DNA from: Rhodospirillaceae bacterium | GTDB taxonomy: Bacteria > Pseudomonadota > Alphaproteobacteria > Rhodospirillales > Rhodospirillaceae | Assembly: GCA_041905795.1 (NCBI GenBank) | Contig: JAYRKL010000007.1 | Coordinates: forward strand, 112,572 to 176,571 | Direction: 5' to 3' | DNA length: 64,000 bases | Shown here: one piece after another, positions 7,534 to 16,164 of the stretch | How the letters are laid out: each line of letters starts with the position of its first letter | Numbering within the stretch: the first letter of the stretch is position 1 | The notes under the pieces: generated by a model | What the model was told of the DNA's origin: nothing | Seen by the model: the letters and a program-made list of their open reading frames with translations, nothing else | Database searches by the model: none | Position numbers and translations under genes: made by a program

Positions 7534-8138
7534 TTCATGATGACCTGATGCTCGCGCAGGAACGCGAGCAAGGGCAGCAGCGGCAAACCAAGAATAGTGG
7601 AGAAATCGCCGTCGATGCGCGCGAACAGCTGCACGCCCCAGCCTTCCAGCTGGTAGGCGCCGACGGAGCTGAGGATTTTTTCGCCGGTATTGGCGAGATA
7701 GTGCTCGATGAAGGCGTCGCTGAAATCGCGCATGGTCAGCTTCGGGCTGGCGCTGTGATGCCAGATCACCGACCCGTCCAGTACAACCGCCACCGCCGTC
7801 GGCAGGGTGTGGGTTTTGCCGCGCAGGGCGGCGAGATGGGCGCGGGCGCCGTTCATGTCGGTGGGCTTGTCGAACCAGACGCCGTCGCATTCGAGCATCT
7901 GGTCGGCGCCGATCACCAGTGCTCCCGGCAGGCGCTGCGACACCTGCACCGCCTTGATCTCGGCCAGGGTTTCCGCGCACTGACGCGCGCCTTGTTCCCC
8001 TTGCGCGCCTTCGGCCTTGAGCGCGAGCTTCACCGCATCCTCGTCGGCGTGGGCGGGAACGATGTCACAGGCGAGGCCGGCCGCCGCCAGCAGGTTGGCG
8101 CGGCTTTTGCTCGCGGAGGCGAGGACGACGTTACGCAT
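7530..8138 (-). CDS. maf: Maf-like nucleoside triphosphate pyrophosphatase
   Basis: 'VVLASASKSRANLL' N-terminus and Maf-like length of 202 aa. Confidence 0.9.
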   Translation of the reverse strand: MRNVVLASASKSRANLLAAAGLACDIVPAHADEDAVKLALKAEGAQGEQGARQCAETLAEIKAVQVSQRLPGALVIGADQMLECDGVWFDKPTDMNGARAHLAALRGKTHTLPTAVAVVLDGSVIWHHSASPKLTMRDFSDAFIEHYLANTGEKILSSVGAYQLEGWGVQLFARIDGDFSTILGLPLLPLLAFLREHQVIMK

Positions 8139-8964
8139 GCTCGGACTGGTGGGGATGACGTTGATTGTAGAGCTGGATGATGGTGGCCGCGGTTTCCTCG
8201 ATGGAGCGCCGGGTGACGTCGATCACCGACCAACCGTGTTTGGCGAACAGGCGGCGGGAGTCGGCGATCTCTTCCTTGACCTTCTCGATGTCGGCGTACC
8301 CTTCGCCGCGGGTGTCGTTCATGATGCGCAGGCGGCTCTGGCGGATGTCCGACAGGCTTTTGGGTTCGCGGGTCAGGCCCACGAACAGCGGTTTGGTGGC
8401 CGCCGCGATCTCGTCGGGCAGCTGGATCCCCGGCACCAGCGGGATATTGCCGACCTTGAGGCCGCGGTTGGCCAGGTACATGCAAGTCGGCGTCTTTGAC
8501 GTACGGGAGACCCCGATCAGGATGATGTCGGCTTCGGTCATGGTGGCCAAGGATTGGCCATCGTCATGCTGCACGGTGAACTGCATGGCGTCGATGCGCT
8601 GAAAATAGCCGTCGTCCAGCACATGCTGTTTGCCCACTTCGCCGACGGCCTGGCGATTGAAGAAGCGCGAGAACGCCTGCATCACCGGGTCCATGGCCGA
8701 GATATAGGGCATCTTCAGGTCGCGGCAGGCCTGCTCCAGGAGCGCACGCACCTTGCCGTCGAGCAGGGTGAACACCACCAGCCCCGGCGCCGCCTTGACG
8801 CCCTCGATCACCCGGTTCATCTGGCCGGCAGTGCGCACCAACCACCAGTAATGTTCGGTTACATGGACATCGCCGTACTGCACCAGGCAGGCGCGGGCGA
8901 TATTGGTGACCGTCTCTCCAGACGAATCGGAGACCAGATGAAGGTTGTATGTCGGTTTCTGCAT
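8131..8964 (-). CDS. Pyruvate, phosphate dikinase / PEP synthase regulatory protein (DUF299 kinase-pyrophosphorylase)
   Basis: 'LHLVSDSSGETV' N-terminus and 'GVSRTSKTPT' P-loop typical of the family. It is the first gene of the overlapped maf-aroE-coaE-dnaQ string. Confidence 0.88.
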   Translation of the reverse strand: MQKPTYNLHLVSDSSGETVTNIARACLVQYGDVHVTEHYWWLVRTAGQMNRVIEGVKAAPGLVVFTLLDGKVRALLEQACRDLKMPYISAMDPVMQAFSRFFNRQAVGEVGKQHVLDDGYFQRIDAMQFTVQHDDGQSLATMTEADIILIGVSRTSKTPTCMYLANRGLKVGNIPLVPGIQLPDEIAAATKPLFVGLTREPKSLSDIRQSRLRIMNDTRGEGYADIEKVKEEIADSRRLFAKHGWSVIDVTRRSIEETAATIIQLYNQRHPHQSEHA

Positions 8965-9607
8965 GCCGCCGGCTAGACCTGAAAACGCATCCTGACCATG
9001 GGGCGGAATAACTTGAGAATCCTGGGGATCATCCGGGGTTTGACCGTCACCGCCGCCGAACCATGAACCCTAGCCCTGATTCTATCCTGTCCCGCCGGCA
9101 CTGTGGATAGCATGGCGCGGCATGGGTGAATCCCGGGAAATCTCTGGCTGCGGAGAGGGTGTCGTCGACTTTTCCCGGCCGCCGGCCCGAGGATTTCACC
9201 GCCGCGGCCGGTTCACGGTGCGGTTCTCCCCGCAGTTCACAGGTTCATCGCCAGTCACCCTCGGGAAAACGGCTGGTCTGGGGAGAACAGCCGGCATGGC
9301 GGTAATCCCCCTGACTCACAGGACCAACTACTCTCCCCAACCTATCAAGATTCTTTTTCTTAGGATGAAGGGAACACGGGATAACTCCGGCCTTCTTCCG
9401 GGGATCTCGGCCAGGGAAGGAATTGACTTAGATTAGGGCCTCGGGTATCGCTGATGACGTCAGACCCAGGGCGCCCGCCCTTCCAGTTTCGTTGACTGAC
9501 CTTTTTTCCCTTCGGCCGACCTCTTACGTCCTCCGGTTCGCGGCAGCAGCTCATATGCTGTCTATTTTCCCAAACCCTCCCAGTCACCCTCAACATTTTC
9601 AAATCAC
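8965..9607. other. Long divergent intergenic region: candidate chromosomal origin (oriC) and/or rho promoter plus leader
   Basis: It is syntenic with the Caulobacter Cori position, upstream of the DUF299-maf-aroE-coaE-dnaQ string. It contains the DnaA-box-like TGTGGATAG at 9102-9110 and TGGGGATCA at 9023-9031. Five GANTC sites lie at 9017, 9078, 9128, 9313 and 9349. Confidence 0.4.
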
Positions 9608-10870
9608 ATGCACCTTCAGGAATTGAAGCGTAAATCCCCAGCCGAATTGCTGGCGTTCGCGGAAGAACTCGGCATCGAGAACGCATCCAACCTGCGCCGG
9701 CAGGACCTGCTGTTCGCGATCCTCAAGATCCTGGCCGAGAAAGACACCTCCATCGACGGCGACGGGGTACTGGAGATCCTGCAGGACGGCTTCGGCTTTC
9801 TGCGTTCGCCCGAGGCCAATTACCTGCCCGGCCCCGACGACATCTATGTCTCGCCCAGCCAGGTGCGGCGCTTCGGCCTGCGTACGGGGGATACCGTGGA
9901 AGGCGGGATCCGCGCGCCCAAGGACGGCGAGCGCTATTTCGCCCTGCTCAAGGTCAACACCATCAATTTCGAGGACCCGGACAACGTTCGTCACCGCATC
10001 AACTTCGACAACCTGACGCCGCTCTATCCCGACGAGAAGTTGAAGATGGAAGTCGAGCAGAAGGACACCAAGAATAAGGACCTGACCGGGCGCGTCATCG
10101 AACTGGTCTCACCGCTGGGCAAGGGCCAGCGCGCGCTTATCACCGCGCAGCCGCGCACCGGCAAGACCATCATGCTGCAAAGCATCGCCAACGCCATCGC
10201 CGCCAACCACCCGGAAGTCTACCTGATCGTTCTCCTGATCGACGAACGTCCGGAAGAAGTCACCGACATGGACCGCACCGTGAAGGGCGAGGTCGTCAGC
10301 TCCACCTTCGACGAACCGGCGTCGCGCCACGTGCAAGTGGCGGAAATGGTGATCGAGAAGGCCAAACGCCTGGTCGAACACAAACGCGACGTGGTGATCC
10401 TGCTCGACTCCATCACCCGCCTCGCGCGCGCCTACAACACCGTGGTGCCGTCCTCTGGTAAGGTGCTCACCGGCGGCGTGGACGCCAACGCCCTGCAGCG
10501 CCCCAAGCGGTTCTTCGGCGCCGCGCGCAATATCGAGGAAGGCGGGTCGCTGACCATCATCGCCACGGCGCTGATCGATACCGGCAGCCGCATGGACGAA
10601 GTGATCTTCGAAGAATTCAAGGGCACCGGTAACTCGGAAATCGTCCTCGACCGCAAGCTCTCGGACAAGCGCGTGTTCCCGTCCATCGACATCACCAAGT
10701 CGGGTACCCGCAAGGAAGAGCTGCTGGTCAAGCAGGCCGATCTCTCGAAGATGTGGGTCCTGCGCCGCATCCTCGATCCCATGGGCGTCCAGGACGGCAT
10801 GGAATTCCTCTTGGACAAACTGCGCGAGTCCAAGAACAACGGCGACTTCTTCGACCGTATGAACAAATAG
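9608..10870 (+). CDS. rho: Transcription termination factor Rho
   Basis: Full-length Rho: N-terminal '[25 protein letters not shown]', Walker A 'AQPRTGKT', and '[15 protein letters not shown]'. Confidence 0.97.
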
Positions 10871-14129: not shown

Positions 14130-14151
14130 ATATCCACAGAGGATATCCACA
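14130..14151 (+). promoter_or_regulatory. Two tandem DnaA-box-like 9-mers (ATATCCACA x2) in the mnmE-mnmG spacer
   Basis: 'gAGATATCCACAG aGGATATCCACAG'. Boxes at 14130-14138 and 14143-14151 each match 8/9 to TTATCCACA. They are in the same orientation, 13 bp apart, and end 8 nt before the mnmG ATG. Confidence 0.6.
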
Positions 14152-16056: not shown

Positions 16057-16072
16057 TGTTTCACGTGAAACA
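16057..16072. promoter_or_regulatory. parS centromere-like site 1
   Basis: Exact 16-bp palindrome TGTTTCACGTGAAACA flanked by GTTAAC...TTAAC arms. Confidence 0.9.
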
Positions 16073-16104
16073 TATTAACGCCGCTGCGGCCAGGCTCGTT
16101 AACC

Positions 16105-16120
16105 TGTTTCACGTGAAACA
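16105..16120. promoter_or_regulatory. parS centromere-like site 2
   Basis: Exact TGTTTCACGTGAAACA within GTTAACCTGTTTCACGTGAAACAAGTTAAC. Confidence 0.9.
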
Positions 16121-16148
16121 AGTTAACGTCCTCCCAACTCTGTTAACC

Positions 16149-16164
16149 TGTTTCACGTGAAACA
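16149..16164. promoter_or_regulatory. parS centromere-like site 3 (overlaps the putative rsmG start codon)
   Basis: Exact TGTTTCACGTGAAACA within the same 30-bp unit as site 2. The only in-frame start candidate for rsmG, GTG at 16157, lies inside it. Confidence 0.9.

Follow-up and report, generated by a model that had tools for sequence, protein, structure and literature searches.

Does the 643-bp gap between the divergent DUF299 and rho genes of an uncultured Rhodospirillaceae bacterium contain its chromosomal replication origin? The gap spans positions 8965-9607 of a 64,000-nucleotide stretch of DNA (G000:C6:112572-176571; hereafter the window, to whose numbering all positions refer unless a contig is named). 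The window belongs to a draft genome (G000; 48 contigs, 3.9 Mb, 65.6% G+C) whose closest public relatives are metagenome-assembled genomes (MAGs) labelled Rhodospirillaceae. An earlier note on this DNA had proposed the gap as a candidate origin, and the proposal is supported here by synteny and by a unique profile match. We estimate a probability of about 80% that positions 8965 to ~9400 constitute the chromosomal replication origin, which would belong to the alphaproteobacterial hemE/DUF299-linked (Caulobacter Cori-type) class and be fused to the rho promoter. The rest of the gap (~9420-9607) is predicted to be the rho promoter and leader, which the same note had expected to find there beside the origin. 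Taken as an origin, the gap does not introduce a new type of element: it is of the known Caulobacter type, except that hemE, the usual neighbour, is missing.

Gene order around the gap

The DUF299/PpsR-like regulator gene (COG1806; 8131-8964, minus strand; NF003742, 322 bits) starts at 8964, adjoining the gap, and rho (9608-10870, plus strand; TIGR00767, 704 bits) forms the right flank. Family models identified dnaQ, coaE, aroE, maf and DUF299 on the minus strand to the left and, to the right, rho (plus), qor and ogt (minus), then mnmE, mnmG, rsmG, parA and parB (plus), confirming the two gene strings that had been read earlier on either side. The full order is dnaQ-coaE-aroE-maf-DUF299 / gap / rho-(qor-ogt)-mnmE-mnmG-rsmG-parA-parB-holA-leuS. 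DUF299 heads the DUF299-maf-aroE-coaE-dnaQ string; it is the gene that canonically flanks alphaproteobacterial origins on the left, and in every relative examined it adjoins the origin gap. Three exact parS sites (TGTTTCACGTGAAACA; 16057-16164, with starts at 16057, 16105 and 16149) lie upstream of rsmG-parA-parB, ~6.5 kb from the gap, just where they had been reported.

This gene order matches the neighbourhood of Cori, the mapped Caulobacter origin (PMC6393856, PMC1914354). The likeness to it drawn in the earlier note holds for the gene string but not for hemE, which is not adjacent to the gap and lies on another contig (C4:179288-184387), within a hemC-hemE-hemF-hemJ operon downstream of a two-component system. 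The genes of this operon overlap or are separated by 23 bp, hemE has no adjacent spacer, and the hemE flank was ruled out as an origin on these grounds. The G000 hemE shares only 36-50% identity with the hemE genes that adjoin sibling-family origins, and we suggest on this ground that the gene was replaced or relocated when the origin-side copy was lost.

The features of the hemE/COG1806-linked class were taken from Brassinga 2001 and Ioannidis 2007, as quoted in PMC1914354. Against these, the gap adjoins DUF299/COG1806, lacks an adjacent hemE, and is richer in A/T than the genome average (58.6% G+C against 65.6%). It also contains an AT-rich element: the patch at 9343-9362 is 80% A/T and ranks in the top 0.04% of the 20-mers of the window.

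Conservation and the origin-core profile

The locus was compared with 23 genomes of the same genus that carry it, with six sibling families of the same order, and with 80 alphaproteobacterial rho loci. DUF299 and rho are divergent in 23 of 23 genus members, across gaps of 604-687 bp. Several blocks of the gap are 94-100% conserved, though DUF299 itself is only ~78% identical across most of the genus. These blocks are GGGATAA, GGGGAT(A/G)A, GTGAATC, GACTCACAGG-N-CCAAC, the AT-rich patch, and TTGACT-17-TATCGC, after which comes a small hairpin.

In the six sibling families DUF299 stands opposite hemE across 374-496 bp, and the same arrangement was found at ~40 other alphaproteobacterial loci, with gaps of 200-500 bp overall. 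The commonest order among the 80 rho loci was maf-DUF299 / gap / hemE ... rho, and in the relatives hemE and ~2 kb of other DNA separate the origin from rho. Published predictions for Azospirillum and Magnetospirillum give the matching order rho-hyp-hemH-hemE-[ori]-hyp-maf-aroE-coaE-dnaQ (PMC2818188). Because rho is ~2 kb away in the DUF299-hemE relatives, the conserved blocks that the gap shares with them belong to the origin and not to rho regulation. The DUF299-hemE gaps of the sibling families can be regarded as textbook origins. They hold 7-13 DnaA boxes at no more than two mismatches, mostly including perfect TGTGGATAA/TTATCCACA sites, and their hemE-end core consists of TG(T/G)GGATAA-N3-T(T/A)ATCCCC(A/G)-N3-AT(T/C)CAC, a (CTA/CAA)n array, 25-30 bp of A/T and, in two families, GGGATAAC.

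A profile of six such sibling cores ranked window positions 9301-9332 first genome-wide, in the expected orientation. When the profile was extended to 14 cores, including those of Nisaea and Nitrospirillum, a single match was found in the 7.8 Mb searched (both strands). This match, C6:121847-121929(+), corresponds to window positions 9276-9358, lies in the correct orientation and has a genome-wide E value of 0.12. It is decisive for homology because the location had been set beforehand and 643 bp represent 8e-5 of the search space. The two profiles also match 12-15 of the 23 genus gaps (15 with the 14-core profile, with E values down to 6e-7) at the same position, with E values down to 1e-7 over both profiles. 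By eye, GGTAATCCCCCTGACTCACAGGACCAACTAC of the window is the visible counterpart of GGTAATCCACAGGACTCACAGCACCACTAC in Nisaea and of TAATCCCCATGATTCACCGTACTACTAC in one sibling family.

Two of the loci compared, L005 (CANJOI010000007.1) and L007 (CANISR010000001.1), come from MAGs labelled 'Candidatus Marinimicrobia', and their DUF299 is 93-96% identical to that of the window. Since an alphaproteobacterial DUF299-rho locus is present in both, this label is probably wrong.

Architecture of the gap

The predicted origin proper (oriC, Cori-type; ~8965-9400) is ~435 bp long, a size like that of the sibling DUF299-hemE gaps. Its best-conserved block, and that of the whole gap, is a core double box on the plus strand, GCGG-TAATCCCCC-TGACTCACA-GG (9299-9322), with a GANTC at 9313. 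Within it GACTCACAGG is 97% conserved in the genus, and the block aligns to TAATCCCCATGATTCAC, TTATCCACAGG and GGTAATCCACAGGACTCACAG in the DUF299-hemE origins of sibling families and Nisaea. The same block is one copy of a 24-nt direct repeat (family D1), the first copy of which, GCGGTTCTCCCCGCAGTTCACAGG (9220-9243, plus strand), is made up of the box-like TTCTCCCC and of TTCACAGG; the two copies are 71% identical and spaced by 79 bp. A further DnaA-box-like site with two mismatches, TGGGGAGAA (9279-9287, minus strand), is inverted relative to 9224-9231 and falls within the profile alignment.

The core double box is followed by a 26-nt G-less tract read directly from the plus strand, ACCAACTACTCTCCCCAACCTATCAA (9323-9348), probably the counterpart of the DnaA-trio-like (CTA/CAA)n arrays in sibling origins, for example CTACTACTACTAC and CAACTACAACAACAACA. 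Next comes an AT-rich patch (9340-9368), a candidate DNA-unwinding element with a GANTC at 9349. The small AT-rich patch of the earlier note is thus confirmed, with A/T in 16 of the 20 bases of 9343-9362; it is AT-rich in all genus members, and sibling origins have an unbroken A/T stretch of 25-30 bp in its place. Beyond the patch lies an GGGATAAC box (9378-9385, minus strand; repeat D7), a direct repeat of the site at 9004-9013, and GGGATAAC occupies the same place in the sibling origins L035 and L036.

The DUF299-proximal part begins with two DnaA-box-like sites in the same orientation, CGGAATAAC and TGGGGATCA (9004-9031, minus strand), with 94-96% column conservation in the genus. The genus consensus of CGGAATAAC is GGGATAA, and the equivalent place in sibling families reads TG(G/T)GGATAAC. 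The second site, TGGGGATCA (9023-9031), had been likened to the weak G-box class of Cori, and the likeness holds: its reverse complement, TGATCCCCA, carries the T-to-G change of the Caulobacter G-boxes, as these are defined in PMC4468827. The best DnaA box of the gap, TGTGGATAG (9102-9110, minus strand), is also present as described, with eight of nine consensus matches, and is kept as TGTGGA(T/C)A(G/A) in about half of the genus. It overlaps the -35 element of a sigma-70-like promoter directed toward DUF299, TCCACA-17-TAGAAT (9079-9107, minus strand; one found in a consensus scan against 0.2 expected), and this promoter-like site may serve the DUF299 operon. Further along, a 94% conserved GTGAATC block (9126-9132; reverse complement GATTCAC) contains a GANTC and is a candidate weak, methylatable DnaA box; the GATTCAC motif is also found after the TAATCCCCA box in sibling origins.

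The remainder of the gap is assigned to rho. Its predicted promoter, TTGACT and TATCGC with a 17-nt spacer (9423-9451, plus strand), is 99-100% conserved in the genus and owes this assignment to its consensus match and position. In the leader (9452-9607, plus strand), GGGC-N4-GCCC (9469-9480) is a conserved hairpin, 9542-9562 is a hairpin resembling a terminator, and the tail is rich in C and poor in G; the second rho-leader hairpin (CAGC...GCTG) has a T-run in G000. No covariation was seen in the rho leader hairpins, and an Rfam scan of the gap returned only a sub-threshold chance match. Taken together, the promoter and leader features would fit Rho autoregulation by attenuation. The rho upstream regions of different families were too diverged for an alignment showing the promoter/leader half as a separate module. 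The origin abuts this half presumably because the hemE-containing segment was lost in this genus.

DnaA-box and GANTC statistics

A position weight matrix (PWM) for DnaA boxes was built only from the boxes of sibling-family origins. Four matches of at least 8 bits fall within 450 bp of the gap, which places it in the top 0.06% of windows of the genome. Loci with at least four PWM matches numbered 18, and only two of them were fully intergenic, namely the gap and C12:48322-48537. Another of the 18 clusters comprises two ATATCCACA DnaA boxes, 13 bp apart, at the mnmE-mnmG junction (14130-14151, plus strand), together with neighbouring weaker sites; lying 4.5 kb from the gap, it is predicted to be an origin-proximal DnaA site cluster. 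With the E. coli consensus, no locus in the genome had more than two boxes per 600 bp.

The five GANTC sites that had been counted within 340 bp are real, starting at 9017, 9078, 9128, 9313 and 9349 (337 bp), and a full-length CcrM homologue is encoded in G000. Their enrichment is real but moderate. GANTC is under-represented genome-wide (1.76/kb against 3.15/kb expected from composition), and at least five sites occur in 5.1% of 275 intergenic regions of 400-900 bp, the dnaA upstream region among them, so that the gap stands in the top 5% of such spacers.

Strand composition, dif and rearrangement

Raw GC skew was not accepted for locating the origin, since it is confounded by the GC skew at third codon positions (GC3 skew) of the coding strand, which is -0.17. 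Raw cumulative curves gave a V or an inverted V on contigs C45, C15, C38 and C39, and the V on C45 was produced by gene orientation and one 16-kb gene. This giant gene (~16.4 kb; C45:120769-137169) has a strongly deviant GC3 skew and alone creates the apparent skew switch there. Skew from intergenic bases only, with too few bases and a standard error of ~0.012, gave no visible signal, and the orientation of the rRNA and rpoB genes, which lie on other contigs, was uninformative as a marker of replication direction.

After correction for gene orientation, the skew on C6 falls from 0 to 80 kb, is flat from 80 to 155 kb and rises from 155 to 188 kb, the gap being at 121.5 kb. A pseudo-scaffold ordered on the relative G001 gave the same flat-bottomed V around the gap. 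At dif, G, T and genes are all enriched on the leading strand, so the polarity of skew in G000 is normal. The own-genome skew is compatible with an origin at the gap; the skew check that had been recommended was run here on the draft genome, did not refute the proposal and was not decisive.

G000 has a single dif site, AAGTCGCATAATGTATATTATGTAAAAG (C42:5218-5245), by which the region of the terminus is marked, and five relatives have exactly one each, on a contig other than that of the gap; because the sole dif is on a different contig in all six genomes, the gap is not the terminus. A ~272-kb inversion separates G000 from G001 (G001:C11, ~859-1131 kb, compared with the G000 contigs C43, C8, C13, C6 and C20, of which C43 is split in G001). 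Its arms extend ~149 and ~123 kb from the gap, roughly matching an origin-symmetric pattern.

When 200 kb on each side were analysed in relatives, the main GC3 change-points fell on the rho side of the gap, at +7.5 kb in G001, +13 kb in G023 and +9.7 kb in G006 (p < 0.003 each). In G001, the TA skew at third codon positions (TA3 skew) has its change-point at -2.5 kb with origin polarity, and TA3 skew and gene orientation together indicate divergent replication at the DUF299-rho locus. The transcription-corrected GC3 polarity of G001:C11 (L038-L095), G023:C1 (L096-L115) and G006:C1 (L116-L135) is opposite to that of G000. One possibility is that the inverted GC3 skew arises from a stronger preference for pyrimidine-ending codons in leading-strand genes.

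Evaluation of alternative explanations

A number of observations count against an origin in the gap. The skew change-point on C6 has p = 0.41, and the bottom of the V is flat over ~75 kb. The GC3 switch of G001, G023 and G006 is terminus-like in polarity, with a C-rich strand leaving the gap; in G017 and G022 there is no switch at this locus; and the cumulative gene-orientation minima of five relatives lie 60-200 kb to the rho side. Within the gap, the AT-rich patch is short (~25 bp), the core box TAATCCCCC has three mismatches, and the E. coli consensus finds one DnaA box at no more than one mismatch and three at no more than two, against ~1.7 expected, which is not above chance. No IHF consensus (WATCAANNNNTTR) matches either strand of the gap. 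CtrA sites are likewise absent from it: there is no TTAA-N7-TTAA, even with one mismatch per half-site, and no TTAA at all. The reservations already voiced about few good DnaA boxes and a missing CtrA site were therefore correct. CtrA sites are, at the same time, a feature specific to Caulobacter and Rickettsiales. As a precedent in the other direction, in Wolbachia the predicted origin stayed with hemE after the separation of hemE and COG1806 (PMC1914354).

One alternative is that the active origin lies elsewhere and that the gap does no more than regulate, through divergent promoters, the DUF299 operon on one side and rho on the other. A candidate for such an origin is the spacer upstream of uvrC (C12:48225-48640), where the inverted pair ATATCCACC-N5-TGTGGATAA is accompanied by five GANTC sites and, in a 66% G+C genome, by 55 bp of almost pure A/T. 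This spacer could also be a promoter regulated by DnaA, or a site at which DnaA is titrated or reactivated. With its perfect DnaA box and a far longer AT tract it surpasses the gap, which it equals in the PWM cluster test. The gap, for its part, surely holds the rho promoter and leader, both strongly conserved, as well as a promoter-like site directed at DUF299, and the skew of G000 itself does not pin the origin. We nevertheless consider this explanation unlikely, since the GC3 and TA3 skews have the same sign on either side of 48 kb on C12, without a switch, the site has no synteny with any known alphaproteobacterial origin, and the origin-core profile matches the gap uniquely and not C12. 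Moreover, the blocks of the gap that recur in DUF299-hemE gaps, with rho 2 kb off, are not rho regulatory sites, and both parS and the centre of the inversion are near the gap. It is quite improbable, too, that the gap represents the ancestral origin only as a decaying relic, conserved for its promoter functions only, while initiation has moved, for example toward dnaA ~120 kb on the rho side. This would agree with the poverty of the genus in consensus boxes (0-3 at no more than one mismatch, against up to five in sibling families), with the gene-orientation minima of the five relatives and with a ~100-kb zone without net skew on the rho side in G001 and G023. However, no part of the gap is better conserved than the core unwinding module (97%), many canonical DUF299-hemE gaps of other alphaproteobacteria are equally box-poor (0-2 at no more than one mismatch), and Caulobacter Cori itself relies on weak and moderate boxes only. 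The place to which initiation would have moved is also unpromising: the dnaA upstream region has no DnaA box at no more than two mismatches and no AT tract, the dnaA region is a skew maximum and not a minimum in G000, and the GC3 change-points of the three relatives fall no more than 13 kb from the gap, away from dnaA.

The cumulative GC-skew maximum in G001, G023 and G006 could also be taken to mean that the gap is the replication terminus. In these three relatives the GC3 skew, raw and transcription-corrected, has positive values toward DUF299 and values of zero or below toward rho. Such a terminus is extremely improbable and effectively refuted by the single dif per genome on a different contig. 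In addition, parABS, mnmG/rsmG, dnaQ and dnaA are all near the gap, 58% of the genes on the 600-kb left flank in G001 would be head-on to replication, the TA3 skew of G001 has origin polarity at the gap, and the dif-calibrated polarity of G000 is normal, with the gap in the minimum.

The earlier note had named positions next to dnaA or hemE as examples of where a skew minimum or marker-frequency peak would speak against its proposal, and both places fail as candidate origins. The hemE gene has no spacer, as described above. On contig C43, dnaA has an upstream region of 785 bp (C43:27807-28591) that was rejected as an origin, with no boxes at no more than two mismatches and the own-genome skew maximum, and that does not belong to the dnaA-linked class, the arrangement seen most often in bacteria; by synteny, dnaA-dnaN-gyrB is located ~117-120 kb to the rho side. 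With five GANTC sites and no DnaA box, the same region fits a control of dnaA linked to CcrM, like that of Caulobacter, and speaks against autoregulation by DnaA.

Proposed course of initiation and significance

If the gap is the origin, DnaA would bind a series of T(T/G/A)ATCC(C/A)C-type boxes, most of them weak, that extends from the DUF299 start as far as the core. The double box TAATCCCCC-TGACTCACA (9303-9320) would direct DnaA onto the adjoining G-less tract, and the duplex would open at the AT-rich patch (9340-9368). Forks would then depart in both directions, and ParB bound to the parS sites 6.5 kb off would segregate the new origins. The positionally conserved GANTC sites would be methylated by the CcrM homologue, and because two of them lie within box-like GAnTCAC motifs, methylation may modulate DnaA binding or the flanking promoters.

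At Caulobacter Cori, the strong hemE promoter has a role in transcriptional activation. A speculative and rather doubtful extension of the mechanism is that the origin was rewired after the loss of hemE. The rho promoter, located 55 bp past the AT element and firing away from it, would have taken over the activating role of the hemE promoter and coupled initiation to Rho-autoregulated transcription, and the near-invariant GAnTCAC motifs would be methylation-sensitive, degenerate DnaA boxes that replaced most consensus boxes.

The analysis gives an uncultured Rhodospirillales-like genus, of which only draft MAGs are known, an origin annotation that can be defended. Such an annotation is useful for ordering contigs, for estimating growth rates (peak-to-trough) from metagenomes and for interpreting rearrangements. 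It also adds a further independent case of an alphaproteobacterial origin kept with DUF299 after the loss of hemE, whereas in Rickettsiales, conversely, the predicted origin is with hemE. The biology is as expected apart from a single real oddity, namely that some congeners have an inverted polarity of GC3 skew at the same locus.

Comparison with known origins

The closest characterised system is Cori of Caulobacter crescentus, located between hemE and CCNA_00001/duf299, which has the same DUF299-maf-aroE-coaE-dnaQ string on one side and rho-trmE-gidA-gidB-parA-parB on the other. The gap resembles it in its mostly weak or moderate DnaA boxes, including the TGATCCCCA site with the T-to-G change of G-boxes, in its five GANTC sites and short AT-rich region, and in the presence of promoters within the origin. 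Unlike at Cori, hemE is absent, and rho and its promoter abut the predicted origin. Cori has five CtrA sites, whereas the gap has none, nor an IHF consensus.

The predicted origins of Azospirillum sp. B510 and Magnetospirillum AMB-1 and the sibling gaps have the same gene order on both sides. These origins share with the gap a core consisting of an TAATCCCC-type box, GAnTCAC/TCCACAGG, a CAA/CTA tract, an AT-rich element and GGGATAAC. Compared with them, the gap is without the ~3-kb hemE segment, has fewer consensus boxes, and contains 58.6% G+C, against 32-50% in sibling gaps.

The order of elements also recalls the basal unwinding system (DnaA box plus DnaA-trios) of Bacillus subtilis and other bacteria, in which a box pair is followed by a short G+C spacer, a strand-asymmetric period-3-like tract and an AT-rich DNA-unwinding element. 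According to the basal unwinding rule, a DnaA box with no more than two mismatches lies 0-16 bp from at least three NAN trios beside an AT-rich region (PMC8287927). The proximal box of the gap, TAATCCCCC, exceeds this with its three mismatches, and the tract at 9323-9348 offers two to three trio-like units; the sibling origins, with TAATCCCCA followed by (CTA)4-5, fit the rule much better.

Finally, DUF299 (or maf) faces rho elsewhere among the alphaproteobacteria, in Bradyrhizobium and Rhodopseudomonas (across ~1.1-1.2 kb), in Bartonella (579 bp) and in Rhodobacterales (maf / rho). By gene arrangement, these loci are likened to the one described here, as the same loss of hemE from the origin flank in independent lineages.

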